A DNA stretch of 64,000 bases, from contig JAHZIX010000045.1 of NCBI GenBank assembly GCA_022601195.1, positions 628,884-692,883 of the forward strand, in the 5' to 3' direction. Shown one piece after another: positions 28,923 through 45,629 of the stretch. The DNA comes from Deltaproteobacteria bacterium. GTDB taxonomy: Bacteria; Acidobacteriota; Thermoanaerobaculia; Multivoradales; JAHZIX01. Made by a program: the position numbers and the translations under genes. How positions within the stretch are numbered: position 1 is the first letter of the stretch; each line of letters begins with the position of its first letter. The notes under the pieces were generated by a model that was not told where the DNA came from, ran no database searches, and saw only the letters and a list, made by a program, of their open reading frames with translations.

Positions 28923-30304
28923 GGCTCTTGAGGGAATCGCCAGCCAAAGGAGCCTTGGGCCATCTGCACGCTTCAGATCTTCGGGCTTTGGTTCAGCTCG
29001 CCGCTCAGGCCACGAGCGGCGTGAGTCGAGTTGTCGAAGGGGTGCATCAATCGGTTTGGAGCACTCTGGGAGCTCCCGGTGGAGACGAGCCGGGGCAGGC
29101 CCGGGGCGTTACCGGTGGGGTGTACCGAGGTATTCAAGGAATCACAAAGCTGGTCGGACGCGTTACGGACGAGCTCTTGGAGAAACTCGAGCCTCTTCTG
29201 AGTGGAATGCAGAGGGGAGAAATCGAGAGGCCGCAACGAGAAGTTGTACTGGCGGCGCTCAACGGGGTGATGGGGGATCGTCTCGTGGAGAGTGGCAACT
29301 CCTTCGCTGTTCCCATGAGCCTTCGCTATCGAGGTGCGGCTCTAGATTGGCAGGCGATGCCGCCGGTTTCATCGGTGTCGAGCAAAGTTCTGTTGCTGGT
29401 TCATGGTTTGTGCTCCAGTGACCGTCACTGGCGAAGAGAGCACGAAGGTCGCGAAGTGGATCATGGCCAGGCCCTGGCCTCGGCAATGGGGGCCACGCCA
29501 CTGTATTTGCGCTACAACACCGGGCTACATATCTCCGTGAACGGTCGCGAGCTAGCAGCTCAGCTAGAGCAGCTAGTGCGCACCTGGCCCGTTCCTTTGG
29601 AGGAGCTCACGGTGGTGTCCTACAGCATGGGGGGACTGGTGACTCGGAGCGCCGCCCACATAGGTCACCAAGAGGGTCAGAGTTGGTTTGGCAGATTGAA
29701 GAGCCTGGTTTTTCTGGGTACCCCTCATCACGGCGCACCCTTGGAGAGGATCGGTAGTTGGCTGGACGAGGTTCTCGGCAGCCTGGCCTACACGGCTCCT
29801 TTTTCCCGGTTGAGCCAGCTTCGCAGTGCCGGCATCACCGATCTACGCTTTGGCCATGTAGTGGACGAAGATTGGCAGGGGCGGGACCGATTCCTTCGCC
29901 ACTCGGACCGCCGCCAGCCGGTGCCGTTGCCGAGTGGAGTGGCCAGCTACGCCATCGCTGCGAGCTTAGCTAGCCAAGACGCTAGGCCGATCCAGAGCGC
30001 TTTGGCAGAGTGCTTTGTTGGAGACGGCCTTGTTCCCCTCCACAGTGCTTTGGGGACCAGTGCTTTAGGGGCCAGTGCTCTAGGGACCAGTGCTCTAGGA
30101 ACCAGCGCCCTAAGAGGGCCTGACGAGGCCGAGCGAAGGCTGCAGTTCCCCAAAGAGGCACAATGGATCGCCAAGGGCATGAATCACCTGGAGTTGTTGA
30201 GCCGCCCCGAGGTGACTCGGCAGCTACTGAGGTGGTTGGCGCCTGAGTCGGGGCAGAGCCTCGTCTCGGATGAAAGCGGCGAGGTTGGACCATCACTTCA
30301 CTAG
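28919..30304 (+). CDS. alpha/beta-hydrolase fold protein (lipase/esterase-like) with a C-terminal (SALGT)n repeat
   Basis: Nucleophile elbow VSYSMGG, LGTPHHGAP. Confidence 0.6.
   Translation: MRLLRESPAKGALGHLHASDLRALVQLAAQATSGVSRVVEGVHQSVWSTLGAPGGDEPGQARGVTGGVYRGIQGITKLVGRVTDELLEKLEPLLSGMQRGEIERPQREVVLAALNGVMGDRLVESGNSFAVPMSLRYRGAALDWQAMPPVSSVSSKVLLLVHGLCSSDRHWRREHEGREVDHGQALASAMGATPLYLRYNTGLHISVNGRELAAQLEQLVRTWPVPLEELTVVSYSMGGLVTRSAAHIGHQEGQSWFGRLKSLVFLGTPHHGAPLERIGSWLDEVLGSLAYTAPFSRLSQLRSAGITDLRFGHVVDEDWQGRDRFLRHSDRRQPVPLPSGVASYAIAASLASQDARPIQSALAECFVGDGLVPLHSALGTSALGASALGTSALGTSALRGPDEAERRLQFPKEAQWIAKGMNHLELLSRPEVTRQLLRWLAPESGQSLVSDESGEVGPSLH
30043..30118. repeat. 15-bp imperfect tandem repeat (agtgctttggggacc x ~4.5) encoding SALGT/SALGA units
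   Basis: Read directly: agtgctttggggacc agtgctttaggggcc agtgctctagggacc agtgctctaggaacc agcgccctaaga. Confidence 0.8.
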
Positions 30305-30354: not shown

Positions 30355-30903
30355 TCACCTTTCTGAATGTTTCAGGGTCAGCTCCATCTGGCTCCCGACT
30401 CCCCCGGATTGGGAAGCTTCCAAGTCCAGTAACAACCTCTTGGCCTCTAGCCCCCCGCCAAAGCCGGTGAGGGAGCCGTTGGAGCCCACCACGCGATGGC
30501 AAGGTACGACGATGGATATCGGGTTGGCACCGTTGGCACCTCCCACGGCGCGACTGGCAGAAGGATTACCGATCTGTTGGGAAAGGATGCCGTAGCTCGT
30601 CGTTTCGCCGTAGGGAATCTGCACCAGGCGGTCCCAGACGCTCTTTTGGAATGGAGTCCCCTGGGCGTTGAGCTCTAGCTCGAAGGCGGTGCGGTCACCG
30701 GCAAAGTATTCGTCCAACTGGAGTCGCAAGTGGGCGAGGCGGTCCGGCGCTTCCTCGAGATCGTCTTCCTGTTCTGCATCGAGGCGAATTTTCTGGGCGC
30801 TTCGGCCTTTTGGGAAGTCGATCCGAACCACGGCGCCTGCTTCGTCGACGACCAGTAGAAGAGGCCCACAGGGTGAGTCCATTAGGTCCCAATAACAATT
30901 CAT
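30355..30903 (-). CDS. ogt: methylated-DNA--protein-cysteine methyltransferase
   Basis: Active site PCHRVVGSNGSLTGFGGG. N-terminal DSPCGPLLLVVDEAG. ATGA overlap with the upstream ada-alkA gene. Confidence 0.85.
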   Translation of the reverse strand: MNCYWDLMDSPCGPLLLVVDEAGAVVRIDFPKGRSAQKIRLDAEQEDDLEEAPDRLAHLRLQLDEYFAGDRTAFELELNAQGTPFQKSVWDRLVQIPYGETTSYGILSQQIGNPSASRAVGGANGANPISIVVPCHRVVGSNGSLTGFGGGLEAKRLLLDLEASQSGGVGSQMELTLKHSER

Positions 30904-32348
30904 GGTTCTACCTCCTTAGCCAAAGATTGCCACAGGTGAAAGGTTGCGAGGCTGCGATGAGGAGAAAAAGGGCGCATCAATTTTTCAGTCACTTCACCTC
31001 GCGGCCGCTCCTCGAGGTTGAAAAAGCGCCACAACCCCTGAGTCAGCCCCGTGTCCCCCAGTGGCAGACAATCCTCGAAACCGAAGGCTCGCATCATCAG
31101 GTAGTTGGCAGACCAGGGGCCGATGCCGCGCACCGCCTTGAGGGTTTGTTCGGTAGCGGTGGCACTTCCCATGGCGAGATCTTCCAGACAAAGCTTGCCC
31201 TGGGCTACCAATGTTGCGGTGTCGATGAGGTACTCCGCCTTGCGGCCGGAAAACTGTTGGGCGGTCAGCTCGGAAATCTCGATGGCAGCGACGGCTTCCG
31301 GGGTCGGTGGCGCAAACAGGCCTTCGCCCACCGGTTGCCCAGCCCGCTCCACCAGGCGGCGAAACAGGGTCAGGGCAAAAGCGAGGTTGATCTGTTGACC
31401 GAGGATCGTCCAGGCGAGCCCTTCGAAGAAGGTGGCGGTTTGAGGAATGCGTAGCCCTCGACGCCCCTCAACGAGTGGCGCGAGGGCTGGGGAGCGAGAG
31501 ACATGGCGCTCGAAAGGAGCCGGGTCGATGGTCAGCCCGAGGATCCGCAGGACGATCCCTTGGGCCGCGATGGCGGCGGTCTCCGGCAGAGCCTTCTTGG
31601 AAACCAAGTCGCAGGTAGCCCTAGAGTCACCTAGGTCTACACGAAGCAGGGTCGGGGTTCCCTCCAAGCAAACTCCCATCTGCAAAGAATCGCCTTGGAT
31701 CTGCTGCACCGGGCTCTGGGGATCTCTTCCCAAGTAGGTGAGGATTCTTCGGCGGTGCCAGTTTTCGGGCAAGCGCACCTCGAAGCGTTTCGCTCCCGGC
31801 AAGCTGCGGTAGTCCGTGGGTTGGGTAGCGGAGAGCCGGAGGAAGCTCTCGTTGAAGGAGGAGAGGCTTTCGAAGCCGACATCGCAGGCAATTTGCGAGA
31901 GGGGCCGATCCGTTTCTGTCAGCAGCCGCTGGGCTGCTGGGATGCGAGCCCGAGTTAGGAGCGCTGCCGGGGTGTTGTGAAAATGCCGCTGAAACAGCTG
32001 GTTGAGCTGCGATGTGCCAAGGCCTGCCGATTTCGCCAGATCTTTAGCATGGCGAAAATTCTCCGGAGCCTGCCGAAGTTCTTTCACCAACTGCAGGACT
32101 CGGTCCTGGTCCGGGTCGTATTGGCGGTAAAAGTGATCGGGTCGGCAGCGACGGCAAGCTCTCAGGCCTTTCTTTTGGGCAGCTTGGGGATCTGTGAAAA
32201 ACCTCACGTCTTCGGGTTTAGGTTTGCAAGCTTGGCAGGAGGGCAGACAGTAGATACCAGTACCCACCACTCCAGCCAGGAAGCGGCCGTCATAGGTCGC
32301 GTCGCGGGCCAGCATTCGATCGATCTTCTGCTCTCTACTGAGGTCCAT
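30900..32348 (-). CDS. Ada-type regulatory methyltransferase / AraC HTH / DNA-3-methyladenine glycosylase II (AlkA) fusion
   Basis: Ada Zn site (GRFLAGVVGTGIYCLPSC...CRRCRP), AraC-type HTH (LARLRRAFAHSPE region), HhH-GPD with catalytic Asp (VRGIGPWSANYLMMRAFGFEDCLPLGDTGL). Start set at MDLSREQ (32348); the track ORF extends to 32465. Confidence 0.75.
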   Translation of the reverse strand: MDLSREQKIDRMLARDATYDGRFLAGVVGTGIYCLPSCQACKPKPEDVRFFTDPQAAQKKGLRACRRCRPDHFYRQYDPDQDRVLQLVKELRQAPENFRHAKDLAKSAGLGTSQLNQLFQRHFHNTPAALLTRARIPAAQRLLTETDRPLSQIACDVGFESLSSFNESFLRLSATQPTDYRSLPGAKRFEVRLPENWHRRRILTYLGRDPQSPVQQIQGDSLQMGVCLEGTPTLLRVDLGDSRATCDLVSKKALPETAAIAAQGIVLRILGLTIDPAPFERHVSRSPALAPLVEGRRGLRIPQTATFFEGLAWTILGQQINLAFALTLFRRLVERAGQPVGEGLFAPPTPEAVAAIEISELTAQQFSGRKAEYLIDTATLVAQGKLCLEDLAMGSATATEQTLKAVRGIGPWSANYLMMRAFGFEDCLPLGDTGLTQGLWRFFNLEERPRGEVTEKLMRPFSPHRSLATFHLWQSLAKEVEP

Positions 32349-32454
32349 GGTCAGACTATAGCGAGGGCCCTTCCATCCTGGCCACCGGATTTCTCCGCGG
32401 GAATCAATCCTCGACTTCATTCGAGATAGGATCACGAAGGAGCTTGGCCCAACG

Positions 32455-33207
32455 ATGATCGACACCCCAACAAGAACTTCACCACCCGTTTCGGTAGCCG
32501 TTGCTGCGGCTGGAGCTCTACTGGCCCTCGGTGCCGTCGTCGCAGCGCGGTTGGGCTGGGCCGCTCCCTACAGTGCCTTTCGAGTCTTCGGCTTGGCGAT
32601 TTTTACCGGCGGTTTCTTAGGCCTGGGAACCGGTCTCTTCGCCCTCTCCCGAACTTGGAACGACGAGTCTCCTGTCCAGCGGAGGACTGCCTGGGCGGGA
32701 ACCCTCATGGGTGCTGCCATGATCTTCTCCTTGGCCATGGCGGGGTCTTCAGCAGCCAAGGTGCCGCCGATTCACGACTTGACCACGGATCTCGAAGATC
32801 CTCCGGTTTTCGTCCAGGCTGCGGATCTACCAGCCAATCGAAGTCGAGATTTGAGCTATCCCCACGGTGACCCGGAAACGCCGAGTCGCCAGGGAGACGC
32901 CTATCCGGACCTGCACCCCATTCGGCTTTGGCTAGAGCCGCAAGAGGCCTACGAGGCGTGTCACCAAGTGCTGGAGCAGGTCGGGTGGACGCTGACTGGA
33001 ACGGACGAGTCGTTGGGGTTCTTGGAAGCTACCGAGACCTCTCGGATCTTTCGATTTGTCGACGACATCGTCATCCGAATCCGTCCTCACTCGAACGGTG
33101 GCTCCGTCATCGACTTGCGTTCGACTTCCCGGGACGGAATTAGCGATCTGGGGGTCAACGCCGAACGCATCCGTCTCTTTAGAGACACTCTGAAGGCAGG
33201 CCAGTAA
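32455..33207 (+). CDS. DUF1499 family membrane protein
   Basis: IHDLTTDLEDPPVF, YPDLHPIRL, IFRFVDDIVIRIRP...VIDLRSTSRDGISDLGVNAERIR. Confidence 0.65.
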   Translation: MIDTPTRTSPPVSVAVAAAGALLALGAVVAARLGWAAPYSAFRVFGLAIFTGGFLGLGTGLFALSRTWNDESPVQRRTAWAGTLMGAAMIFSLAMAGSSAAKVPPIHDLTTDLEDPPVFVQAADLPANRSRDLSYPHGDPETPSRQGDAYPDLHPIRLWLEPQEAYEACHQVLEQVGWTLTGTDESLGFLEATETSRIFRFVDDIVIRIRPHSNGGSVIDLRSTSRDGISDLGVNAERIRLFRDTLKAGQ

Positions 33208-33274: not shown

Positions 33275-33784
33275 ATGAAAAGGGAGGCACCCCCTTTCCA
33301 AGGAAGATATCTCCAGGCCGCCTGCGCTTATGCAGCCCTCGGCTCAGTCGTCATGGCGATTACCGTAGCTTCCCCCGGTATGTTAACGGCAGAGAGGCGG
33401 GTCGACCTGGCTCATCTGTTGGCTGCCCTTCCTTTCTTTCTCGCTGCTGGGGCGCTCATTGCTTGGGGGCATCAGTGGTTTGCCGGCCTCGCTCGGTTGT
33501 TTGGGGTGGGGTCTGAGAAAGCGGCCCGAATGGGGGCCGGGGTGCGAGAGAAGGTCGTGATGTTGCTCACTCTCTCGGCTCTGGGCCGAGTGACGGTCTT
33601 TGCTGCCAACGCCTTGGGGTGGCGCTTGCGGCTCGGCGGTGGGGCTGGAGGTGTCAGTTGGGAGTCGGTGCCGGCGAAACCCCGAATGTTCGTGGCGGCT
33701 TTGCTCATGATCGTGATCGCCACTCTTTTGGCTCGGGCTTCGTGGGTCCCTTTTTTGACTCGTCGCCGCAATCGAACACAATAA
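33275..33784 (+). CDS. hypothetical membrane protein
   Basis: Four predicted TM segments. No motif recognised. Confidence 0.35.
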   Translation: MKREAPPFQGRYLQAACAYAALGSVVMAITVASPGMLTAERRVDLAHLLAALPFFLAAGALIAWGHQWFAGLARLFGVGSEKAARMGAGVREKVVMLLTLSALGRVTVFAANALGWRLRLGGGAGGVSWESVPAKPRMFVAALLMIVIATLLARASWVPFLTRRRNRTQ

Positions 33785-33863: not shown

Positions 33864-35141
33864 ATGACCAGCCTCAACACGACTGAACCGAGCCCCTTCC
33901 CAGCCGCCGCTCTGACGGATTCCTTCCGTCCTTCTCTGGTTTCCTGGAATCTCACCAAGAGATGCAACCTACGTTGCCCCCACTGCTACCTGAGCGCTGG
34001 AAAAAAGGCAGAGGAAGAGCTCACCACGGAGGAGTGTTTTGCCCTCATCGACGAGATGAAGGAGCTCGGCACCGAGATGGTGATTCTCACCGGCGGGGAA
34101 CCGCTGCTGCGCAAGGACATCTTCGATCTGGCTCAGCGTTGTGCCGAAAAAGGGTTGTGGGTGGTGATGGGCACCAACGGAGTCCTGATCAACGACCGGG
34201 TGGCGGCAAAGATGGTGGAGTGCGGCATCAAGGGCGTCGGCATCAGCATCGACTCGATACACCCGGAAAAGCACAATAGCTTTCGCGGTGGGCCCAACTC
34301 TTGGGAGCACTCCGTGAGGGCCTTGGAGATCTGCCGATCCCATGGCCTCGAAGTCTTGGTTCAGTCCACGGTCATGGCCGACAACTTCGAGGAAGTGCCC
34401 CAGCTGATCGAATTCGCTCGCGATAAGGGAGCTTGGTCTTTCAATCTCTACTTCCTGGTGCAGACCGGCCGTGGTCAACTCATGAACGACCTATCGGCGC
34501 CGCAGACCGAAGCCATTCTCGGGCAGTTGGTCGAATCCCAGGAGGCCTATCGGCCGATGCTGGTCCGTTCCAAATGTGCACCTCACTTCAAGCGCTTGGC
34601 CTATGAGCAGGGGTTGGGGGGTCTCGAGAGCGGGGGCTGTATGGCGGGCACTCAGTACTGCCGCATCACCCCGGAGGGTGAGGTCACCCCCTGCCCTTAC
34701 ATGGATCTTTCCGCGGGCAATGTTCGGGACTCCAGTTTCACGGAGATCTGGCAGGGCTCGACCCTTCTCCAGGAACTTCGAGATGTCGCCAAGTTAGGAG
34801 GCCGGTGCGGCGACTGTGAGTTCAACGAGCTTTGCGGTGGTTGTCGATGTCGTGCCTATGCTGCCTACGAAGACCCTCTCGCCGAGGACCCCGCTTGCAC
34901 TTACCAGCCGACGGGAAAGCCTTTGGACAACCAGGAGGTCTTGTGGGATTCGGAGGCGCGCGCTCGGCTGGACCGCATTCCCATCGCATTCATCCGCAAC
35001 AAGGTGCGCTCCGGCCTCGAGAGCTTTGCCCGTCGTAAGTCTTTGACTCTGATTACCGCGGAGGTGATGAAACAAGGACTGCAGGGGGGCGCCAGGCCGA
35101 GGGCCTTTCCTGGCATGCCGCCTTTCGGGCCCCCGAAGTAG
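33864..35141 (+). CDS. radical SAM / SPASM-domain protein, AhbD/NirJ-like (candidate O2-independent coproheme decarboxylase)
   Basis: CNLRCPHCY radical-SAM cluster site. C-terminal Cys-rich SPASM (CGDCEFNELCGGCRCRAY). AAGAAGGA SD. Followed within 1 kb by hemQ-hemH-hemY. Confidence 0.6.
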   Translation: MTSLNTTEPSPFPAAALTDSFRPSLVSWNLTKRCNLRCPHCYLSAGKKAEEELTTEECFALIDEMKELGTEMVILTGGEPLLRKDIFDLAQRCAEKGLWVVMGTNGVLINDRVAAKMVECGIKGVGISIDSIHPEKHNSFRGGPNSWEHSVRALEICRSHGLEVLVQSTVMADNFEEVPQLIEFARDKGAWSFNLYFLVQTGRGQLMNDLSAPQTEAILGQLVESQEAYRPMLVRSKCAPHFKRLAYEQGLGGLESGGCMAGTQYCRITPEGEVTPCPYMDLSAGNVRDSSFTEIWQGSTLLQELRDVAKLGGRCGDCEFNELCGGCRCRAYAAYEDPLAEDPACTYQPTGKPLDNQEVLWDSEARARLDRIPIAFIRNKVRSGLESFARRKSLTLITAEVMKQGLQGGARPRAFPGMPPFGPPK

Positions 35142-35164
35142 GGGAGCCCTTAGCAATGGAGCCT

Positions 35165-35908
35165 TCACCCTCCGAAGCGCTGCACCAGGTGATACCGCGC
35201 TTCGCGCTTCCACCATCCCCAATCGTGGGCGACGTCGTGGCCCCAGATATCCCTCTGGTGGCTGATTCCTTTCGATTCCAGGATGTCTGCGAGGGCCTGA
35301 GTTTCTTCGATACAGCCCTCTTCCCAGGCACCTTGACCGCAAACCAACGCCAAGTGAGCATGCTTCCTGACTCGCTCCAAGTGCTGCCCTTCCAGATTGG
35401 AGGCGTAAGCGAGGGGATTGTTGAAATAGACGTCGAGGTTGGAGAAACCACCGGTGAACCCAGTGATGTCGTAGCGGCCGCTCATGCACAAGGCATAGTG
35501 AAAGATCTCAGGAAACTTTAGGGCGAAGTTGGCGGCGTAATAGCCGCCAAGGCTACACCCGGTCGCTCCAATGCGGATCTCCGGAGCCTGGCAGTCTCGA
35601 CGAATGAAAGGCACCAGCTCCGAAATAACGTATTCCTCGAAAGCCTGGTGGCGCTTGATTCTCCATTCCGGAGGGTTTTGTTGCCGAGTCCAAGCCTCTG
35701 CGACGTTGCTTTCACAGCAATAGAGCTTGATACGGCCCTCTTGGATCAGATCGCTGAGGGTGCTGACCATGCCTTGGGCATCCCACTCGTGGGCCATGCC
35801 CGCTGCCGAGGGAAAGACCAGAATCGGTACTCCCCAGTGGCCGTAGCACCACACATGCATCCTGCGGCCCATCACCTGGCTCGGAATCAATTCATGTCGC
35901 CGTTTCAC
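35165..35908 (-). CDS. esterase-family alpha/beta hydrolase (putative esterase)
   Basis: GATGCSLGGYYA nucleophile motif; 247 aa. Confidence 0.65.
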   Translation of the reverse strand: MKRRHELIPSQVMGRRMHVWCYGHWGVPILVFPSAAGMAHEWDAQGMVSTLSDLIQEGRIKLYCCESNVAEAWTRQQNPPEWRIKRHQAFEEYVISELVPFIRRDCQAPEIRIGATGCSLGGYYAANFALKFPEIFHYALCMSGRYDITGFTGGFSNLDVYFNNPLAYASNLEGQHLERVRKHAHLALVCGQGAWEEGCIEETQALADILESKGISHQRDIWGHDVAHDWGWWKREARYHLVQRFGG

Positions 35909-36134
35909 GGTATGAGAGCTCCTCCCTGGAGAGTTTGAGGGGAACGACTGAGCAACGCTGCTGCTTTCGCCCCCGTGCTAGCATCAAAGCTCCGTGCCGG
36001 GGCTCGGAGGCTTGCTGAAAACGCTCGTTTCTTCGCCGAGTGACGCCCGGGCAGCGGCCGAGTTCTCGGCGCTCCGAACGCGCTGAGGAAAATCGTTCGA
36101 AGTCGTTTCACGAGAGTACTATGGGAAGGTATCC

Positions 36135-36872
36135 TTGGCTAGAAAAGAGCTAGAAAACAAACCAGTGGTGTCCTCGGGAGAGGAGCCGGTCTTGAGTCGT
36201 CGGACCCTCAACCATTTTGCCTTTTTCCGCTTTCGGAAAGCTCACGAGACGATGGCTGCGGAGGATCGGGCCCAGTTTCACCGACGTTGGCTGGAGGCTC
36301 TTCGCAGCGCCGCAGCTCAAGTGGAGGTTTACCAGGTCTTCCCGACTCGCGCAGATGCAGATATTTTGGTCTGGAGTGCACTGCCTTACGAGGACGACCA
36401 GACCCCTCGCCATTTCTTTGAGGCTTTCGCCAAGGCGACCCTTCCTTTCCGCCGCTATGTGAAGAGTACCGAGATCCTGTGGGGGATGACGCGGCCTTCG
36501 CCCTATGTGGGTGGCAAGAAGCCCCGCGGTATGGACCCTATTGAAGGCAAGAGGCAGAGTTATCTGACCCTCTACCCCTTCGTGAAGACCGCCGAGTGGT
36601 ACGGCATGGGTCGAGAGGCTCGTCAAGGAATGATGAATGAGCACATTCGCATCGGGCGGCAGTTTCCCGAAGTCGATCAACTGCTGCTCTACTCCTTCGG
36701 TCTTCAGGACCAGGAGTTCGTCGTGGTCTACGAGATGGAAGACCTGCCTCGCTACTCGGAGCTCGTTTCGCAGTTAAGAGGTTGTGATGGTCGCCCCTTT
36801 ACGGAGCGAGATACACCGATCTACACGGCGGTGCATCACGCTGCCGAAGACACTCTGGCACTATGGGAATAG
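36135..36872 (+). CDS. chdC: coproheme decarboxylase (HemQ / chlorite-dismutase family)
   Basis: RTLNHFAFFRF...YLTLYPFVKTAEWY typical of HemQ. Start uncertain: TTG at 36135 or GTG at ~36165. Confidence 0.75.
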   Translation: MARKELENKPVVSSGEEPVLSRRTLNHFAFFRFRKAHETMAAEDRAQFHRRWLEALRSAAAQVEVYQVFPTRADADILVWSALPYEDDQTPRHFFEAFAKATLPFRRYVKSTEILWGMTRPSPYVGGKKPRGMDPIEGKRQSYLTLYPFVKTAEWYGMGREARQGMMNEHIRIGRQFPEVDQLLLYSFGLQDQEFVVVYEMEDLPRYSELVSQLRGCDGRPFTERDTPIYTAVHHAAEDTLALWE

Positions 36873-36876
36873 AGCT

Positions 36877-37845
36877 GTGGAGGTAAAGGACTCACAAGCT
36901 TTGGATCCAGGACCTTCGGACACCGCTTCCTGGGCTGTCCTGCTGATGGCCTATGGGGGGCCGGACTCTCTGGCCGATGTAGAGCCCTTCCTGCTGGATA
37001 TCCGCGGTGGCCGGCCAACTTCCCAGGATCTCATCGACGAAATAAAGAGTCGTTACGAACAGATCGGTGGTCGGTCGCCCCTGCTCGAGATCTCTCGGGC
37101 ACAGGCAGCAGCCCTCGAGGAGTTGCTCCAGTCTGGTGATCATCCTGAGACATTTCAGGTGTATCTCGGCATGCGTCATTGGCATCCTTATATTTCCCAA
37201 GCGGTTCGCCAAATTGTCGCGGACGGCCACCGTCGCATCATCGCCCTCTGTCTGGCACCTCACTTCTCACGGATGAGCGTCGGGGCCTATTTTAGGAAGG
37301 TCGAGGAGGCCATTGCTGAGGTCGGGGCTGAGGTCGAGGTACGGTGGGTGCGGGGCTATGGTGATCACCCCCTCTTTCAGGAGTCTCTGGCTTATCGGGC
37401 CAAGCTGGGCCTACAGAAGTTCCCTGTTGACGAACCCGAGGAGGTGCGGGTTCTCTTTACCGCTCACAGCCTCCCGGCGAGGATTTTGGCGGAAGGAGAC
37501 CCTTACGATGCCCAATTGCGAGCGACGGCGAGAGGGGTCGCGGATTTGTTGGGGGACGAGGTTTGGGAGATGTGCTACCAAAGCGCCGCAGCGGGAGCCG
37601 TCGATTGGTTGGGGCCCCATTTGGACCAGCGCATTGGTGAATTGGCCGCGGAGGGTTGTCGCAACGTGCTGGTCGCCCCCATCGGTTTCATCTCCGACCA
37701 CGTAGAAATTCTCTTCGACATTGACATCGAAGCCCGAGCGCTGGCAGAACAAGCCGGGATCCGTCTGGAAAGAACCGAGTCCCTAAATACCGCTCCCGGT
37801 CTCATCGAAGCCATGGCCGACATCGTCCAACGCATCGCCTCCTGA
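36877..37845 (+). CDS. cpfC: coproporphyrin ferrochelatase
   Basis: WAVLLMAYGGPDSLADVEPFL, HSLP, LVAPIGFISDHVEILFDIDIE. GTG 36877 chosen, 4 nt after the hemQ stop. Confidence 0.75.
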   Translation: MEVKDSQALDPGPSDTASWAVLLMAYGGPDSLADVEPFLLDIRGGRPTSQDLIDEIKSRYEQIGGRSPLLEISRAQAAALEELLQSGDHPETFQVYLGMRHWHPYISQAVRQIVADGHRRIIALCLAPHFSRMSVGAYFRKVEEAIAEVGAEVEVRWVRGYGDHPLFQESLAYRAKLGLQKFPVDEPEEVRVLFTAHSLPARILAEGDPYDAQLRATARGVADLLGDEVWEMCYQSAAAGAVDWLGPHLDQRIGELAAEGCRNVLVAPIGFISDHVEILFDIDIEARALAEQAGIRLERTESLNTAPGLIEAMADIVQRIAS

Positions 37846-37887
37846 TCTCGGATCGAACTTCTAAGGCCGCCTCTTGAGCTCTCCCCG

Positions 37888-39342
37888 ATGACTGCGGAAA
37901 AAACGTCGCCGAAGGAGCGAGGCAGGCCTCGAGTGGTGATCGTCGGTGGTGGTCTCACCGGGCTCACCGCTGCCTATGCCTTGCAGATGCGAGCCGCAGA
38001 GACCGGCGAGACGATCCCTTTCACCGTGCTGGAGAGCGGTTCCCGATGGGGGGGCAACCTGGTCACGGAAGAGGTCGATGGCTTCCTGGTTGAAGGGGGG
38101 GCGGACTCTTTCATCGCGCGCAAGCCTTGGGCCATGGAGTTGGCGCGCGAGTTGGGGCTGGAGGGGGAGATCATTCGTACTCCGGCTGCCCATGGGCGAG
38201 TCTACGTCCTGCGACGGGGCCGGCTGGTGCCCTTGCCAACAGGAATGCGCTTCGTAGTTCCTACTCAGATTCGACCGCTCCTGGCTTCGCCGCTCCTCTC
38301 CTGGCCCGGGAAGCTGCGCATGGCGCTGGAGCGATGGGTTCCCAAGAAGAGGGTCGATGTTTCCGGGGGAAGCGACGAGAGCCTCGCGAGTTTCATTCGA
38401 CGTCGGTTCGGTCGGGAGGCTCTGGAGGTGATAGGAGAACCTCTCATGGCAGGCATCCACGCTGCCGACCCGGAGCATCTGAGCCTAGAAGCCGCCTTCC
38501 CCGATGTCGCCGTCCTGGAACAACGTTTCGGTAGCCTGATCCGCGGTATGAAGGCGGTTCACAGCTCGCTGCCGAGGCGAGGGCAGACGGAGAACTCCTC
38601 CCGAGTCACCCTTCGCGGTGGAGTGCAGCAACTGGTGACCGGCCTGGTGGAGCGAATCGATCCGGCATCCTTGCGACTGCGGTCATCGGTGAGGAACCTG
38701 CGGCGCCAGGGAGCCGGCATCGAGATCGAGCTGGAGGCCGGGGAGCGTCTCCATGCCGAGGCGGTGATCCTTGCGACGTCTGCCTTTGTTGCAGCGAAGT
38801 TGGTAGGCGAGCTGGATGGGGCCCTAGGGGAGGGGCTCGGGGCGATTCCCTACATCTCCTCGGCGACCGTTTCCCTCGGTTTTCGAGAAGAACACGTCGG
38901 GAGGGCCATGGACGCCCTGGGCTTCGTCATTCCTGGTAGCGAGCCGAGCCGCCTGCAGGCTTGCACCTGGAGCTCCGCCAAGTTTGACGGTCGGGCACCA
39001 GCGGGCCACGTCTTGATGAGGGCTTTCGTCGGTGGTGCTCGCAACGAAGAGTTAGTCGAGTGGAGCGATGACGATTTGAAATCTTTGGTTCTGGCAGAGC
39101 TGGGCCCCCTCATGAGGCTTTCGGGAGATCCTGTCCTAGTTCGCATTCATAGATGGCGAAAGGGAATACCCCAATACCATCTCGGCCACTCGGAGCGTCT
39201 CGCCCGCATCGAAGCCCACGACGTGAATGGCCTGTTTCTGGCCGGCAACGCCTACCGTGGTGTGGGACTGCCCGATTGCATCCACAGTGGCCGCCAGGCG
39301 GCCGATGAGGTGGTAGATTTCCTCGGCAGGAGGGTCGAGTGA
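37888..39342 (+). CDS. cgoX: coproporphyrinogen III / protoporphyrinogen oxidase (HemY family)
   Basis: FAD dinucleotide fold VVIVGGGLTGLTAAYAL; 484 aa HemY-like. Confidence 0.8.
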   Translation: MTAEKTSPKERGRPRVVIVGGGLTGLTAAYALQMRAAETGETIPFTVLESGSRWGGNLVTEEVDGFLVEGGADSFIARKPWAMELARELGLEGEIIRTPAAHGRVYVLRRGRLVPLPTGMRFVVPTQIRPLLASPLLSWPGKLRMALERWVPKKRVDVSGGSDESLASFIRRRFGREALEVIGEPLMAGIHAADPEHLSLEAAFPDVAVLEQRFGSLIRGMKAVHSSLPRRGQTENSSRVTLRGGVQQLVTGLVERIDPASLRLRSSVRNLRRQGAGIEIELEAGERLHAEAVILATSAFVAAKLVGELDGALGEGLGAIPYISSATVSLGFREEHVGRAMDALGFVIPGSEPSRLQACTWSSAKFDGRAPAGHVLMRAFVGGARNEELVEWSDDDLKSLVLAELGPLMRLSGDPVLVRIHRWRKGIPQYHLGHSERLARIEAHDVNGLFLAGNAYRGVGLPDCIHSGRQAADEVVDFLGRRVE

Positions 39343-39559: not shown

Positions 39560-41053
39560 GTGAATTTCCGACTATGCCAGTTTCGCGAGGCGAAAGAGAG
39601 CATGCAAGCTGTTGCCGACATTGATCCGGTAGAAGGTCGTCCCGCGCTTATCGCAGGCGACCCCGACTTTCATTCCATCACCGAGACCGTAGCGGCTCCC
39701 ATGGAATGGACCCCTCCCAGGGGTTGGTACATCGCCCTGGGTGTTTCTCTATTGATGCTGTCCATGCTCGGTGTGAGCATCGGCTGGCTCTTCTGGGAAG
39801 GGGTTGGAATTTGGGGAAACAACCAGCCGGTAGCGTGGGGTTGGCCAATCGTCAATTTCGTGTTCTGGGTGGGTATCGGCCATGCCGGTACGTTGATCTC
39901 CGCGGTCCTGTTCCTGTTTCGCCAGAAATGGCGAACCTCGATCAACCGAACAGCGGAGGCCATGACCATTTTTGCGGTCATGTGCGCTCTGATCTTCCCC
40001 GGGATCCACATCGGTCGTCCTTGGCTGCCCTATTGGATGATGCCGGTGCCCAATTCGATGGACATGTGGCCTCAATTCCGCAGTCCTCTCATGTGGGATG
40101 TCTTCGCAGTCAGCATCTATGGAACGGTCTCTTTACTGTTCTGGTACCTCGGCCTCATTCCCGATCTCGCCACCATGCGCGATCGGGCCAAGACCAAGGT
40201 TCGCCGCATCGCTTACGGCGTCTTCTCCATGGGCTGGCGGGGCTCTCAGCGCCAATGGCACCACTATGAGAAGGCCTACCTATTGCTGGCAGGTTTGGCG
40301 ACGCCTCTGGTGCTTTCCGTGCACTCGGTGGTGTCCTTCGATTTCGCCACCTCCCAGCTGCCCGGCTGGCACACGACGATTTTCCCGCCGTACTTCGTAG
40401 CGGGAGCCATTTTTTCGGGCATCGCCATGGTGGTGACCCTGATGGTCATCTGTCGAGTGCTCTTCAAGCTCGAGTCGATCGTCAATCTGTTGCATTTCGA
40501 CCGCATGGCGAAACTTCTGTTGGTGACCGGCAGCATCGTCGGCTACGCCTACAGCATCGAGTTCTTCATCGCCTGGTATAGCGGCAACCCTTACGAAGGT
40601 TTCACCTTTTTGAATCGCGCCTTTGGCCCCTACGCCTGGGCCTACTGGATCATGGTGAGTTGCAACGTCATCACGCCGCAGATCTTCTGGTTCAAGAAGG
40701 CGCGCACCAATATGACGATCTTGTTCATCGCTTCGATCTTCATCAACATCGGCATGTGGTTCGAGCGTTTCGTCATCGTAGTGACCTCCCTGCACCGAGA
40801 CTTCCTTCCCTCCAGTTGGGGCTATTTCCGCCCGACTTTTTGGGATATCGCCACTTTCGTTGGCAGCTTTGGCCTGTTCTTCACCATGTTCTGCCTTTTC
40901 GTTCGCTTCTTGCCGATGGTTGCCATGGCGGAGGTCAAGGGAGTTCTTCCAGAAGCGCACGGACGGCCGCCGGAGCCGGAGACAGATATGCCTGCAATCG
41001 ACGTGTCTGCGACCGAAACGGCGCAGGTCGCTGGGACGGCTAGGGTGCCATGA
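39560..41053 (+). CDS. actC: NrfD/PsrC-family membrane subunit, alternative-complex-III ActC-like
   Basis: Ten predicted TM helices, NrfD-like [26 protein letters not shown] 39560 or ATG 39602 as start. Confidence 0.7.
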
Positions 41054-41595
41054 GCGGTCAAGCAGCATCGACGGAATACGGCTTGCTGGCCGAATTCCAG
41101 ACGCCGGAGCACCTCTATCAAGCCTGCGAGAAGGTGAGGGATGCGGGTTTCTCCCATTGGGATGCCCATTCACCGTTCCCCATTCACGGGCTGGACAAAG
41201 CCATGGGACTCAAGAAGTCTCCAGTGTCCCTCTTCGTGCTCGTTTTAGGACTCAGCGGCGCTACCATTGGCATGTTGATGCAGTGGTGGGTGGCCACCAA
41301 GGCGTACCCACTGGTGATCAGTGGCAAGCCCCTGTTCAGCTGGCCCGCGTTCATTCCCATCGCCTTCGAGTGCGGTATTCTCGGCGGGGCTGTTGGTGCC
41401 TTGTTGGGGTTCCTGAGCCAAGCTCGGCTACCCAGGCCTCACCATGCGCTCTTCAACGCTTCTCGCCTCGAGCGGGTCACGGATGATGCGTTTTTCATCT
41501 CCATCGAAACGGCGGACCCCAATTTTGATCGCGAATCGACAGCACAGTTGCTGAAGGATCTCGGAGCGACCCACGTAGAGGCCGTTGCCGCCTAG
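41050..41595 (+). CDS. actD: ActD-like (DUF3341) alternative-complex-III subunit
   Basis: [50 protein letters not shown] overlap with actC. Confidence 0.7.
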
Positions 41596-41615
41596 GAAAG
41601 AGGGCTGAAGAAACC

Positions 41616-42824
41616 ATGCATCACGAGCCCATAACTGTGCCCACGGCATCAGTCACACTGCCGGAGGGCAATTCTTGGGGGCGTCTGTCCAGGATCAGCG
41701 CGGTCGTCGGGGTGGTGGCCCTGCTGGCTACCTTCGCGCTCTATTTCAAGGATGGCCACACTTTCTTTCCGTCTTATCTGGTGGCCTTTCTCTTCTGGTT
41801 GAGCATCGCTCTGGGTGGATTGATTTTCGTTCTCATCCAGTACGCCACCCGCGCCGGTTGGAGCGTGGCTGTGAGGCGCCTGGCAGAGCACGTGATGGGG
41901 ACCCTGCCGGTTTTTGGGCTGCTATTTCTGCCCCTCCTGCTGGGAATTCACGATCTCTACCATTGGAGCCACCACGAAGCTGTGGAGGCGGATCGTCTCC
42001 TCGAACACAAGAGCGCGTTTCTCAACTCCTTCGGCTTTTCCACCCGGTCCGTCGTCTACCTGGTCATTTGGTCTCTGCTGGCCTGGTGGTTTCGCCGTCA
42101 GTCCATTGCCCAGGATCAGAGTAAGGACCCGCAGGTCACTCGTCGTCTTCAGGCTCGCAGCGCACCCGCCATTTTGGTGTTTGCCCTTACAGTGACCTTC
42201 GCCTCCTTCGACTGGATCATGTCCCTAGATCCCCATTGGTACTCCACCGTATTCGGTGTCTACCTCTTCGCCGGCTGTTTCCTAGCGATTCACGCGGTGC
42301 TGGCTCTGCTGTGTTTGAGGCTCCAGAACCAGAAGTTACTGGCCGGGGTGGTGAGCTTCGAGCACTACCACGATCTGGGCAAAATGCTTTTCGCGATGGT
42401 GGTGTTCTGGGCCTACATAGGCTTTTCCCAGTACATGCTGATTTGGTACGCCAATATTCCCGAGGAGACGGCGTTCTTCCAGGAGCGCTTGACCCACGGC
42501 TGGAAGGGCATCACGGTGGCATTGGTCTTGGGCCATTTCGTCCTGCCCTTTCTCTTCCTGCTCCTCCGAGGAGTGAAGAGGCGTAGAGCAACACTTCGGT
42601 TTGCGGCCCTTTGGCTACTAGCGGTCCACTGGTTAGACCTCTATTGGCTGGTCATGCCGCCTCTGAATCACGATGGACCGCATTTCAGCTTTGCTGACGT
42701 GACGGCCTTTGTCGGGATCGGTGGTTTGTTTTTGGCTGTTTTGGCGACTCTGATGCAAAAGAGTGCCTTAGTTCCGATAGGTGATCCGCGACTCACGGAG
42801 TCCCTATCGTTCGAGAATGTCTAG
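41616..42824 (+). CDS. actF: ActF-like NrfD-family membrane subunit (quinol:cytochrome c oxidoreductase membrane subunit 2)
   Basis: Polytopic membrane protein with NrfD-like topology, immediately after actD. Confidence 0.65.
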   Translation: MHHEPITVPTASVTLPEGNSWGRLSRISAVVGVVALLATFALYFKDGHTFFPSYLVAFLFWLSIALGGLIFVLIQYATRAGWSVAVRRLAEHVMGTLPVFGLLFLPLLLGIHDLYHWSHHEAVEADRLLEHKSAFLNSFGFSTRSVVYLVIWSLLAWWFRRQSIAQDQSKDPQVTRRLQARSAPAILVFALTVTFASFDWIMSLDPHWYSTVFGVYLFAGCFLAIHAVLALLCLRLQNQKLLAGVVSFEHYHDLGKMLFAMVVFWAYIGFSQYMLIWYANIPEETAFFQERLTHGWKGITVALVLGHFVLPFLFLLLRGVKRRRATLRFAALWLLAVHWLDLYWLVMPPLNHDGPHFSFADVTAFVGIGGLFLAVLATLMQKSALVPIGDPRLTESLSFENV

Positions 42825-43028
42825 ATCTGTTGAGGTTGGTACGATTCAGGCACTGCTGAGGGACCGGGAACGAATAGAATCTTGAGACGCGATCTTTGGA
42901 GTCGCAATTCTTTGGAGCCAAGATCTCCAAAGGAGGCGTTTCTAGAGACGCTGTCGGAAGTAACATCAGCTCCCCTCGGTGGAACCCAGAAAACCTACGA
43001 CTCATCCCCTATGAAGGAGAGAGAGCCC

Positions 43029-43751
43029 ATGCTTCGCAATCAAAGAAACCTAGTCCTCGCCGCCGTATTGTTGGCGGCTGGAAGTCTGCTCATGGCCTCC
43101 GTCGCGCAGGCCGGCTCGGTGACCGGGAAAGTGACCTATGACGACCGGGTACCCAAGCTGAAGCCCATCAGCATGGGGGCCGACCCCAGCTGTGCCTCCA
43201 AGCACGATGGGCCCGTCTATCCCGAGGTTTTGGTGATCGGCGACAACAATGCCCTCGCCAATGTTTTCGTGCAGGTCAAGAACCCGCCGGCCGGCAACCA
43301 TTCCACTCCCAGCAAGCCTGTGGTCATCGACCAGAAGGGCTGCCTCTACGAGCCTCATGTGGCCGGCGTTATGGTTGGGCAGCCAATCCAGTTTCGTAAC
43401 TCCGACGGAATTCTTCACAACGTCCACGGGCTTCCCAAGGAGAACCGAGAGTTCAACATTGGCATGCCTCCGACCTTGAAAGAGAAGGACCAGGTGCTCA
43501 ACAAGCCCGAACCTTTCTTCAAGGTCAAGTGTGACGTTCATCCCTGGATGAATTCCTACGTCGCGGTCATGACCCATCCGTACTTTTCAGTCAGCGGCAA
43601 AGACGGGAGCTTCAACATCCCGGATCTACCTGCCGGTACCTATGAGATCGAGGCCTGGCACGAGAAGCTCGGTACCAAGAAGGCCAGCATCACGGTTGCT
43701 GCGAGCGGCGCCGCCAGCACGGATTTCTCGTTTACGATTCCGAAGAAATAA
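43029..43751 (+). CDS. secreted cupredoxin-like (type-1 copper) protein
   Basis: Signal peptide MLRNQRNLVLAAVLLAAGSLLMASVAQA. Candidate T1Cu ligands HNVHG ... CDVHPWM (C-x2-H-x2-M). GGAGAGAGAG SD before ATG 43029. Confidence 0.55.
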   Translation: MLRNQRNLVLAAVLLAAGSLLMASVAQAGSVTGKVTYDDRVPKLKPISMGADPSCASKHDGPVYPEVLVIGDNNALANVFVQVKNPPAGNHSTPSKPVVIDQKGCLYEPHVAGVMVGQPIQFRNSDGILHNVHGLPKENREFNIGMPPTLKEKDQVLNKPEPFFKVKCDVHPWMNSYVAVMTHPYFSVSGKDGSFNIPDLPAGTYEIEAWHEKLGTKKASITVAASGAASTDFSFTIPKK

Positions 43752-43825
43752 GACCCAACCGAGGCGGCAAGCCTAGGCCCGAGTCAGCAAGGATAGAGAT
43801 CTCAAGGAAGTAGAAGGAAACGCCC

Positions 43826-45598
43826 ATGGAAGAAACTCACCACGACGACCATCACCACGAAGAGCTGGGCTTCTGGAGGAAGTACGTCTTCTCCGTGGAC
43901 CATAAGGTGATCGGCATTCAATATGCCATCACCGGATTGGTGTTCCTCTTCTTCGGCTTCTGTCTGATGATGCTGATGCGGTGGCAGATTGCCTACCCGG
44001 GCCGCGCCTTGCCGATCATCGGAGGCCTGCTCGGAGATACCCGCATGCCTGGTGGTGTCATGCTGCCGGAGTTCTACAACCAGCTGGGAGCGATGCACGG
44101 CACTATCATGGTGTTCCTCGGCGTCGTTCCCCTGGGTGTCGGCGGCTTCGGGAATTTCGTCGTACCGCTGCAAATCGGCGCTCCGGATATGGCTTTCCCA
44201 CGACTCAACATGGCGAGCTATTGGTCGTTCTTGGTTGGCGGCGTGATCATGTGTCTGAGCTTCTTCGCCCCTGGTGGAGCCGCTCAGGCCGGTTGGACTT
44301 CCTATCCGCCCCTTTCCGAGATCACTCCGGTCGCCGGCCAGGTGATGTGGTTGGTGGGCATGGTGTTCTTGATCACCTCGTCCTTGCTCGGTTCGGTGAA
44401 TTTCATCGTCACGATCATTCAGCTGCGGGCCAAGGGCTTGAGTTTCATGCGACTGCCCTTCTTCGTGTGGGCGCAGTTCGTGACCTCCTTTCTCTTGCTG
44501 CTCGCTTTTCCGCCCCTGGAAGCCGCGGGCTTCATGCAGCTCATGGACAGGCTCCTGGACACGAGTTTCTTTCTCCCCAGTGGCCTGGTGGTAAGTGGAG
44601 AAGTTCTAGCGGTGAGTGGCGGAGGTAGCCCCATTCTCTGGCAGCATCTTTTCTGGTTCCTGGCTCATCCAGAGGTCTACGTGTTGATTCTGCCAGCCTT
44701 GGGAATCGTCGCAGAGATCGTTGCCAACAACACCCGCAAGCCTCTCTGGGGCTATAAGTCGCTGGTCTACTCGGTGATCTTCCTCGGTTTCATGTCCTTT
44801 GTCGTGTGGGCTCACCACATGTTCATCACTGGCATGGGTACCGTGATGTCGGCCTTCTTCCAGACCACCACGATGATCATCTCGATTCCATCGGTAGTTA
44901 TCTTGACGGTATTGATCCTGTCTCTGTGGGGAGGCTCGATACGATTCAACACGCCGATGCTCTTCGCCTTGGCCTTTCTTCCGATGTTCGCGATCGGAGG
45001 TCTAACGGGCCTGCCGCTGGGCTTTTCGTCGACGGATATTCATCTTCACGATACCTACTACGTCATCGGTCACTTTCACTACGTGGTGGCACCGGGAACC
45101 ATCTTTGCTCTCTTTGCAGGGATCTACTATTGGTATCCAAAGGCGACCGGGCGAAAAATGAACGAGACTCTGGGCAAATTACATTTTTGGCCCAGTTTTA
45201 TCTGCATGAACCTGATCTTCTTCCCCATGTTGATGCAGGGTCTTGCCGGTCTCAACCGCCGAATGTACGACGGTGGTGAGATCTATGCTCATGCCCAGCC
45301 GGTGATTCACTTGAACGAAGTGATTTCCATAGCTGCTTGGGTGATGGCCTTGGCGCAGATCTTTTTTATCGTTAACTTCTTCCTGAGTCTCAAGACCGGA
45401 GAGAAGATTGGCGAGAACCCGTGGCGAGCTACGACCCTGGAGTGGGCCGCGCCGTCGCCGCCACCCCACGGAAACTTTCTCACCGAGCCGGTGGTTTACC
45501 GGGGCCCCTATGAATACAGTGTGCCGGGAGCTAGCGAAGACTTCTCCCCCCAATTCGATGAGGCTGCAGCGCCCAACAGCGAGCCTGTAACAGCTTAG
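43826..45598 (+). CDS. ctaD: cytochrome c oxidase subunit I (heme-copper oxidase)
   Basis: Twelve-TM HCO subunit I: WFFGHPEVY-like WFLAHPEVYVLILPALG, HH motif region. 590 aa. Confidence 0.9.
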   Translation: MEETHHDDHHHEELGFWRKYVFSVDHKVIGIQYAITGLVFLFFGFCLMMLMRWQIAYPGRALPIIGGLLGDTRMPGGVMLPEFYNQLGAMHGTIMVFLGVVPLGVGGFGNFVVPLQIGAPDMAFPRLNMASYWSFLVGGVIMCLSFFAPGGAAQAGWTSYPPLSEITPVAGQVMWLVGMVFLITSSLLGSVNFIVTIIQLRAKGLSFMRLPFFVWAQFVTSFLLLLAFPPLEAAGFMQLMDRLLDTSFFLPSGLVVSGEVLAVSGGGSPILWQHLFWFLAHPEVYVLILPALGIVAEIVANNTRKPLWGYKSLVYSVIFLGFMSFVVWAHHMFITGMGTVMSAFFQTTTMIISIPSVVILTVLILSLWGGSIRFNTPMLFALAFLPMFAIGGLTGLPLGFSSTDIHLHDTYYVIGHFHYVVAPGTIFALFAGIYYWYPKATGRKMNETLGKLHFWPSFICMNLIFFPMLMQGLAGLNRRMYDGGEIYAHAQPVIHLNEVISIAAWVMALAQIFFIVNFFLSLKTGEKIGENPWRATTLEWAAPSPPPHGNFLTEPVVYRGPYEYSVPGASEDFSPQFDEAAAPNSEPVTA

Positions 45599-45629
45599 TC
45601 GGAACGAGAGACCGAGGAGATCTGAGACT

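Follow-up and report, generated by a model that had tools for sequence, protein, structure and literature searches.

The literature accepts AhbD as an alternative enzyme for the last step of heme synthesis by the coproporphyrin pathway, and it is present in organisms without the other Ahb enzymes. Cleavage of S-adenosylmethionine (SAM), abstraction of hydrogen from the propionates, and removal of the electron through auxiliary clusters are established for this enzyme. The H2O2-dependent HemQ/ChdC, in turn, belongs to the cgoX-cpfC-chdC pathway of Firmicutes, Actinobacteria, and Acidobacteria, and deletions in the archaeon Haloferax volcanii have demonstrated that ChdC (PitA) is used aerobically and AhbD anaerobically. 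It is only partly settled how organisms with the coproporphyrin pathway complete heme under limiting H2O2 or O2; genome surveys, largely covering Gram-positive bacteria, have led to the proposal that AhbD fills this role. Here, we analyzed a 64,000-nucleotide stretch of a Thermoanaerobaculia genome (Acidobacteriota; contig JAHZIX010000045.1; labeled at NCBI as a metagenome-assembled genome of Deltaproteobacteria) in which the gene for a radical-SAM/SPASM protein of 425 amino acids lies close to hemQ, hemH, and hemY. This whole stretch is called the window, and all coordinates are numbered from its first letter.

On balance, the 425-amino-acid protein is probably an AhbD-type coproheme decarboxylase (a SAM-dependent heme b synthase) that would work beside HemQ, and it falls into a clade marked by the PCP_red domain. 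With AhbD and NirJ2 it shares the radical-SAM core, the eight-cysteine SPASM spacing, end-to-end top matches, and an association with coproheme genes. It differs from them in scoring under the model cutoffs, in belonging to a clade of its own, and in carrying an extra C-terminal PCP_red domain, of which there are as many as four in other members of the clade. Additionally, instead of ahbABC, the genes linked to the clade are hemY/hemH and a cytochrome bd-like cluster, and its conserved partners comprise Usp-PCP_red, Mrp, and small PCP_red proteins.

Like H. volcanii, the genome studied here combines a chlorite-dismutase-family decarboxylase with an AhbD-type radical-SAM enzyme. However, archaeal coproheme comes from the siroheme (Ahb) route, while that of the window would come from bacterial hemY-hemH. 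As in the HemQ/ChdC pathway of other bacteria, hemQ, hemH, and hemY are adjacent and co-oriented in the window; the differences are that the His of the 'LHRP' motif of actinobacterial enzymes is replaced by Thr in the window hemQ and that the operon runs directly into ActC/ActD/ActF-like and cox genes. The initial annotation had regarded the coproporphyrin pathway as notable in an Acidobacteria-like genome and had put forward the idea of dual coproheme decarboxylation. Since HemQ in Acidobacteria is already published and the aerobic use of ChdC with anaerobic use of AhbD has already been demonstrated genetically, neither point is new.

AhbD-type features of the radical-SAM protein

We scored the radical-SAM protein against 18,950 NCBIfam models, and the two top models were NirJ2 (TIGR04055; 347 bits) and AhbD (TIGR04545; 302 bits), both with end-to-end alignments. 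Lower scores were obtained with TIGR04053 (279 bits), NirJ (219 bits), AhbC (201 bits), NirJ1 (190 bits), MftC (177 bits), and PqqE (146 bits). In Pfam, the protein matched Radical_SAM (116 bits), SPASM (46 bits), and PCP_red (47 bits), the last being a feature absent from the initial annotation. We take NirJ2 to be the AhbD of sulfate reducers and Firmicutes. As a calibration, the representative P0157 scored 533 bits on the NirJ2 model, which passes its cutoff, and 348 bits on the methanogen AhbD model; therefore, the distance of the window protein to the NirJ2 type is about the same as that between the two AhbD model families. All 10 representatives sampled from the 150 clusters nearest to the window protein also scored best on AhbD-type models.

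The full SPASM motif of AhbD from methanogens and sulfate reducers is CX20-33CX17CX36-37CX2CX5CX2CX17-35C (PMC10452713), and residues 238 to 345 of the window protein fit it, with spacings of 20, 17, 37, 2, 5, 2, and 17. In an alignment of 55 sequences, the radical-SAM cysteines C34, C38, and C41 were invariant, as were seven of the eight SPASM cysteines, with C345 nearly so. Judged from their sequence pattern, the eight SPASM cysteines would be the ligands of two auxiliary [4Fe-4S] clusters. The AlphaFold2 model of the protein had a SPASM radical-SAM fold (predicted local distance difference test score [pLDDT], 88.8). By both sequence and fold, the nearest solved structures were PqqE, SkfB, SuiB, and anSME, and no AhbD, AhbC, or NirJ chain was among the PDB matches; SuiB is also reported as the first match for an AhbD model (PMC10452713). 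The resemblance to the AhbD/NirJ class that the initial annotation had noticed was thus borne out by the two top scores, by the exact SPASM spacing, and by the hem linkage in other genomes described below.

A HMMER scan of 1.84 billion representatives yielded the 150 nearest clusters, 34 of which carry one to four PCP_red repeats. We built a neighbor-joining tree from 129 representatives plus the window protein, L053, and L055 (131 sequences), without an AhbC/NirJ outgroup, in which the PCP_red-bearing proteins formed a single clade (bootstrap of 95/100 in a 65-sequence subset). A placement of this clade as the sister of NirJ2-type AhbD, suggested by the first neighbor-joining tree, was withdrawn on its bootstrap value. 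The haloarchaeal homologue L055 passes TIGR04053. Identities of 65 to 75% were found between the window protein and family members across the sampled phyla, which included Anaerolineae, Latescibacterota, Rhodothermales, Thermoanaerobaculia, Marinimicrobia, Myxococcota, Calditrichia, Opitutales, and Spirochaetales. On these sequence comparisons, the PCP_red radical-SAM group forms a distinct clade in the AhbD superfamily, one that is widespread and has not yet been named. Our literature search returned nothing on this clade, on its partner module, or on a tie to bd-like oxidase clusters.

The PCP_red domain of the radical-SAM protein was homologous to the extreme C terminus of the BchB/ChlB subunit of dark-operative protochlorophyllide oxidoreductase (DPOR) and to the stand-alone structures 2KRU and 2L09 (about 47 residues; E values of 1e-4 to 2e-3 against PDB chains). 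In the model, PCP_red helices spanned residues 363 to 369, 375 to 391, and 399 to 406, and the pLDDT values of the block lay between the low 80s and the mid 90s. In DPOR, a C-terminal helix of BchB covers the protochlorophyllide cavity, although we do not equate this helix with the PCP_red segment. Because of the homology to the BchB C terminus and the cavity-covering helix of DPOR, PCP_red could possibly act by analogy as a substrate lid or a docking domain. The two settings differ in that PCP_red is fused to a radical-SAM enzyme here and to a nitrogenase-like subunit in DPOR.

The gene for P0157 lies on an 8.7-kb contig (L063; region from 2770 to 6614), where it adjoins a putative iron-siderophore/heme-type ABC importer (Peripla_BP_2, FecCD, and ABC_tran). 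A choline-binding/NlpC-P60 cell-wall protein on the same contig suggests a Gram-positive host, and ahbABC genes were not found on this contig.

Gene order in the window and in other genomes

The five genes for the radical-SAM protein, the esterase, hemQ, hemH, and hemY were found at the coordinates and in the orientations originally given for them (Table 1). As the initial annotation had described, the last three are adjacent and co-oriented, and the radical-SAM gene lies about 1 kb upstream on the same strand with only the opposite-strand esterase between. The intergenic gaps are only 28 bp (hemQ-hemH) and 42 bp (hemH-hemY), and hemQ-hemH-hemY thus looks like one operon. The radical-SAM gene and the esterase are convergent and 23 bp apart, so that the radical-SAM gene is a transcription unit separate from hemQHY. 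The esterase weakly matched enterochelin esterase (NCBIfam, E = 2e-5) and keeps its position in the related loci L057 and L058; speculatively, it may have a connection to the iron supply of ferrochelatase.

For hemQ, the NCBI call places an alternative start at 36192, 19 codons later than the start in Table 1, which gives 226 amino acids. The closest solved structures of its product were the actinobacterial coproheme decarboxylases 9MHQ and 6XUB. Against 9MHQ, 'LYPFV' aligned with 'VYPFV' and 'NEHIR' with 'ADHVK', so that the Tyr and the proximal His are kept; from knowledge of actinobacterial ChdC, we take these to be the catalytic-type residues. The NCBIfam scores stayed under the cutoffs (HemQ_actino, 100.6 versus 235 bits; PRK12276, 34.7 versus 253 bits). 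Judged from its sequence, the HemQ of the window looks functional, and with it the genome would encode an H2O2-dependent last step alongside a SAM-dependent one. The hemH open reading frame (ORF) reaches back to 36784, and the Ferrochelatase Pfam model gave 288 bits on that ORF; from the start at 36901, the protein scored 243 bits on TIGR00109 (cutoff, 125 bits). hemY passed TIGR00562 (297 bits versus a cutoff of 98 bits). The NCBIfam hits for hemY and hemH do not separate coproporphyrin-specific from protoporphyrin-specific types.

Directly after hemY come genes for ActC (NrfD)-like, ActD, and ActF-like proteins; ActA and ActB genes are missing upstream of them. The three genes are followed by a gene for a CarboxypepD_reg-domain protein and then by Cox1, Cox3, and Cox2 at 43826-47876 (+). 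The region from 39560 to 47876 appears to be an alternative-complex-III-like set without its heme and Fe-S subunits at the locus. The hemY-ActC junction recurs in L009 and L023.

We surveyed the genomic context of the radical-SAM gene in 55 species-level loci, with up to 21 kb around each match, and in three additional loci (L057, L058, and L060). hemY lay within 10 kb of the radical-SAM gene in 14 of the 55 loci, from several phyla, and a ferrochelatase gene did so in 8; by our own estimate, hemY would be expected this close in about 0.5% of cases if both genes were single copy and unlinked in a genome of a few Mb. A ferrochelatase-hemY-radical-SAM row on one strand was found in L017, L020, L024, and L033 (metagenome-assembled genomes of Myxococcota, "Deltaproteobacteria," and Desulfobacterales). 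L022 has hemY and the radical-SAM gene, and the ferrochelatase match just upstream of them is only fragmentary; hemH is upstream of the radical-SAM gene in L026 and L027. hemY is a few hundred bases downstream of the radical-SAM gene in L009 and L028; in L009, from the Thermoanaerobaculia, it follows after about 150 bp and is itself followed by ActC, and in L023 a hemY-ActC pair lies about 2.5 kb downstream.

The loci closest to the window in gene order belong to the Thermoanaerobaculia, a class of Acidobacteriota. The order radical-SAM gene, esterase, hemQ, hemH, hemY, ActC is kept in L057 and L058 (78 to 82% identical); in L057, the radical-SAM gene and the esterase are separated by an inserted toxin-antitoxin pair and two further small genes. 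Since this order is kept in these relatives and hemY is near the radical-SAM gene in 14 of 55 loci, the adjacency of the radical-SAM and hem genes is more than chance. In L060 (73% identity), the radical-SAM gene stands in the row Pyr_redox_2, orf152, radical-SAM gene, ferredoxin, 2 kb upstream of hemA-hemC-hemD...hemB-hemQ-hemE, and hemQ is about 9 kb away. Linkage to hemQ is thus kept in the lineage of the window and, loosely, in L060; beyond these, it did not extend to the 55 species-level loci.

Several smaller observations concern the immediate neighbors of the radical-SAM gene. Homologues of orf169, identified with jackhmmer, are immediately upstream of the radical-SAM gene in L001, L002, L005, L013, L019, L027, and L048 (Anaerolineae, Myxococcales, and Opitutales), and a homologue is also present in L058 and L060; because it is conserved at this position, orf169 may be a functional partner. 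In L060 (8346-11539), a pyridine-nucleotide-disulfide-type flavoprotein and a 2x[4Fe-4S] ferredoxin are encoded on either side of the radical-SAM gene and may be a dedicated electron supply for the enzyme. The hemA-C-D...B-Q-E cluster of the same locus contains LarB-like (AIRC) and LarC-like (Ni_insertion) genes (13281-21266). In loci of Rhodothermales, Calditrichia, and Anaerolineae (L036 to L046 and others, e.g., L042 at 11293-12087), genes for three conserved proteins of about 264, 198, and 134 amino acids without a Pfam or NCBIfam match follow the radical-SAM gene; no copy of them was detectable in the window.

We counted the conserved partners in the 29 loci that were well flanked (at least 5 kb on each side). 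Singly, the Usp-PCP_red protein was encoded in 21 of the 29 loci and an Mrp/NUBPL-type carrier in 17. A Usp-PCP_red homologue elsewhere contains two stretches of Usp, three of PCP_red, and, under the Pfam cutoff, a weak rubredoxin-like match. In most other genomes, the radical-SAM-PCP_red gene sits within the partner cluster. The window genome has the complete cluster minus the radical-SAM gene 24 kb away from that gene (58716-64000 and 4 kb beyond), with the ActC/ActD/ActF-like and cox genes between the hemQHY region and the cluster. L059, which is 100% identical to window positions 51035 to 64000, reaches 4 kb further and contains the remaining part of the cluster (L059 1-4005), including a CydA-like gene 71% identical to the Rhodothermales copies. 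A CydA-like subunit (Cyt_bd_oxida_I, about 600 amino acids) with separate cytochrome c subunits is shared with the OR-N/OR-C bd-like oxidase families without a quinol site (Murali et al.). The main text of that preprint mentions no radical-SAM gene, and no paper combining 'bd-like' and 'AhbD' turned up in the literature search.

Table 1. Features of the radical-SAM/hem region and of the partner cluster in the window
Feature	Position	Strand	Basis or remark
orf169, small membrane protein, directly upstream of the radical-SAM gene	33275-33784	+	no Pfam/NCBIfam family
Radical-SAM/SPASM/PCP_red protein, 425 aa, AhbD-like putative SAM-dependent coproheme decarboxylase (heme b synthase)	33864-35141	+	Pfam, NCBIfam
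CX3CX2C radical-SAM motif codons, C34/C38/C41 in CNLRCPHC (residues 34-41)	33963-33986	+	motif search
SPASM region, eight Cys (238, 259, 277, 315, 318, 324, 327, 345)	34575-34898	+	regular-expression match
C-terminal PCP_red domain (PF08369), residues 361-404	34944-35075	+	Pfam 46.9 bits, cutoff 32.5
Putative esterase	35165-35908	-	Pfam Esterase; convergent with radical-SAM gene, divergent from hemQ
hemQ/chdC, coproheme decarboxylase	36135-36872	+	Chlor_dismutase 133 bits
hemH/cpfC, ferrochelatase, 314 aa	36901-37845	+	start from gene caller and homologues
hemY/cgoX, FAD-dependent coproporphyrinogen/protoporphyrinogen oxidase	37888-39342	+	Amino_oxidase 213 bits
ActC (NrfD)-like, ActD, ActF-like membrane subunits, directly after hemY	39560-42824	+	Pfam of window proteins and syntenic L057
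Small PCP_red protein, 136 aa	58716-59126	-	PCP_red 58.6 bits; 55% identical to radical-SAM-adjacent Myxococcota copies
Mrp/NUBPL-type iron-sulfur cluster carrier ATPase	59123-60058	-	MrpORP 150 bits, ApbC 106 bits; ParA/CbiA Pfam
GNAT acetyltransferase-like, 286 aa by gene caller (about 60095-60955)	60095-61210	-	same position in L017, L024, L026, L027
Usp + PCP_red protein, 695 aa	61035-63122	-	Pfam Usp, PCP_red; 58% identical to L032 copy
Diheme cytochrome c + EB_dh protein, cut by window end	63173-64000	-	two cytochrome c genes and CydA-like beyond

Proposed function of the radical-SAM protein and alternatives to it

Several findings weigh against an AhbD function. Both AhbD-type models remained under the 500-bit equivalog cutoff, and no NCBIfam cutoff at all was reached by the protein. 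The PCP_red clade is separate and was sister to the NirJ2-type group in only 3 of 100 bootstrap replicates, with no supported deeper order among the AhbD-like clades; it is without a characterized member, and annotated records almost always name it only "radical SAM protein." hemQ was found within 10 kb of the radical-SAM gene in none of the 55 loci, an iterated profile search included. Among the 29 well-flanked loci, the commonest context was the PCP_red/Mrp module (Usp-PCP_red, Mrp/NUBPL, and/or the small PCP_red protein; 22 loci), and a CydA-like and/or diheme cytochrome c-EB_dh gene was present in 21, usually directly upstream of the radical-SAM gene, while hemY or hemH occurred in only 7. 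In the window, the radical-SAM gene stands among aerobic respiratory genes, and elsewhere it is co-operonic with hemY. Finally, a scan for FNR/CRP boxes (TTGATN4ATCAA, with up to 2 mismatches) gave 18 matches versus 15.2 expected, none of them at the relevant promoters.

The frequent position inside the CydA-like/cytochrome c/EB_dh cluster, in most cases right behind the EB_dh gene, would suit a protein that, jointly with Usp-PCP_red, Mrp, and the small PCP_red protein, is dedicated to a tetrapyrrole maturation, e.g., a NirJ-like side-chain change, for the bd-like/cytochrome c-EB_dh complex and not to bulk heme b; the place beside hemQHY would then be a secondary rearrangement. The retention of the whole cluster minus the radical-SAM gene in the window genome, the occurrence of PCP_red in three different module proteins, and the membership of NirJ and AhbC, which have other side-chain chemistry, in the same superfamily all favor such a function. 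However, the AhbD-type models scored clearly above NirJ and AhbC, and the protein has the cysteine spacing that is specific to AhbD. Additionally, the module travels with a hemH-hemY-radical-SAM set, with no CydA-like gene detected nearby, in L017, L027, and the short L022, a combination that fits a general heme synthase with helper proteins, and likewise no CydA-like gene was detected nearby in L060. A heme synthase gene among genes for heme proteins also requires no special chemistry, and we consider the dedicated maturation unlikely.

A still less likely function is the conversion of coproporphyrinogen III to protoporphyrinogen IX by an analogue of HemN/CgdH on an AhbD scaffold, in which case hemY would be a protoporphyrinogen oxidase and hemH a protoporphyrin ferrochelatase. 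The two reactions share their chemistry, turning the propionates of rings A and B into vinyl groups, reviews liken AhbD to CgdH, every NCBIfam hit of hemY is named protoporphyrinogen oxidase, and the specificity of hemY and hemH is not readable from the scores; the lack of hemQ near the radical-SAM gene in the 55 loci would also fit. Yet a hemQ with catalytic-type residues in the window, L057, L058, and L060 marks the coproheme route, and characterized AhbC, AhbD, and NirJ all act on an iron-containing tetrapyrrole according to the literature. The solved structures nearest to the protein (PqqE, SkfB, SuiB, and anSME, with no AhbD, AhbC, or NirJ chain among the PDB matches) would agree with a SPASM enzyme that matures peptides or cofactors (PqqE/MftC/sactisynthase type), has nothing to do with heme, and lies next to hemQHY by coincidence. 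Maturase models, however, scored only 93 to 177 bits, far below their cutoffs (MftC, 177 versus 265 bits; PqqE, 146 versus 381 bits; AlbA, 94 versus 850 bits), versus 302 to 347 bits for the AhbD types. Moreover, linkage to hemY/hemH recurs across phyla, and respiratory, heme, and PCP_red genes took the place of conserved maturase-type neighbors, of which none were seen among the loci, with no systematic search made for short peptide ORFs. A peptide-maturase identity was rejected on these scores and neighbors, and assignment to a non-heme SPASM family, named in the initial annotation as a possible refutation, is highly improbable.

For the AhbD-type decarboxylase that we favor, we infer the following substrate, reaction, and division of labor with HemQ. 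hemY and hemH would make coproheme. The [4Fe-4S] cluster bound by the CX3CX2C motif would cleave SAM reductively, and the resulting 5'-deoxyadenosyl radical would take hydrogen from the propionates of rings A and B of coproheme. Both propionates would be oxidatively decarboxylated to vinyl groups, yielding heme b independently of O2 and H2O2, and the leftover electron would leave via the two auxiliary clusters. The enzyme would thus work beside the H2O2-dependent HemQ/ChdC encoded 1 kb downstream. Mrp plausibly loads the three Fe-S clusters of the radical-SAM enzyme, and together the Usp-PCP_red, Mrp, and small PCP_red partners might load clusters and dock or supply the enzyme. A more far-reaching and rather doubtful extension is that the radical-SAM-PCP_red protein, Usp-PCP_red, Mrp, and the small zinc-ribbon PCP_red protein are an undescribed heme-finishing module, with PCP_red as a shared tetrapyrrole-handling or docking domain. 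Such a module could provide the main HemQ-independent coproheme decarboxylase of largely aerobic lineages, or it could be the maker of a modified heme for the oxidase. The module occurs in many diderm phyla, Rhodothermales, Latescibacterota, Calditrichia, Anaerolineae, Myxococcota, Thermoanaerobaculia, and Gemmatimonadota among them, and stands in physical linkage with a bd-like/cytochrome c-EB_dh oxidase cluster.

The initial annotation had also suggested oxygen-responsive switching of the last heme step. The FNR/CRP-box and promoter scans provided no regulatory signal for this; counts in a sigma-70 promoter and terminator scan of 32.3 to 39.7 kb were at background, and a weak promoter-like site at 33755-33782, before the radical-SAM gene, was not relied on. 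ahbA/ahbB (AsnC-like decarboxylase) and ahbC were not found among the scanned window ORFs or in the syntenic loci. hemY is described as the oxygen-dependent enzyme of its step in Gram-positive bacteria. Because of the aerobic respiratory neighbors of the radical-SAM gene and its operon with a presumably oxygen-dependent hemY elsewhere, a strict anaerobic role, or a simple aerobic-anaerobic split with HemQ, appears doubtful by analogy.

Other features of the window and meaning for the pathway

Upstream of the heme region, an Ada Zn-binding/AraC-HTH/AlkA-type glycosylase fusion of 521 amino acids, followed by an O6-methylguanine methyltransferase, is encoded at 30355-32465 (-). The two are an adaptive-response alkylation repair pair, which is kept upstream of the radical-SAM region in L057 and L058. 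At 28919-30304 (+), there is a gene for a PGAP1/DUF676-like alpha/beta hydrolase with a short tandem peptide repeat, ALGTSALGASALGTSALGTSAL, in its C-terminal part. A protein of 1,905 amino acids encoded at 2833-8550 (-) has DUF3686 ("ATPase involved in DNA repair"; 710 bits), DUF7902, and an AAA domain, and the ORFs 8696-10741 and 12329-14395, downstream of this gene, were without a family.

With regard to heme synthesis, the window offers a concrete and very conserved candidate from diderm phyla, which in some lineages is in an operon with ferrochelatase and hemY genes and has no hemQ nearby; in the lineage of the window, the radical-SAM candidate coexists with hemQ. If the protein is simply an AhbD orthologue, the result is a useful annotation fix and no surprise. 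If the function proposed here is confirmed, the pathway annotation of many uncultured lineages would change, and a second tetrapyrrole setting would be added for PCP_red, until now known solely from the tail of an enzyme in the chlorophyll pathway. Likewise, a module for cofactor supply would be linked to the bd-like oxidase clusters, which are poorly understood.

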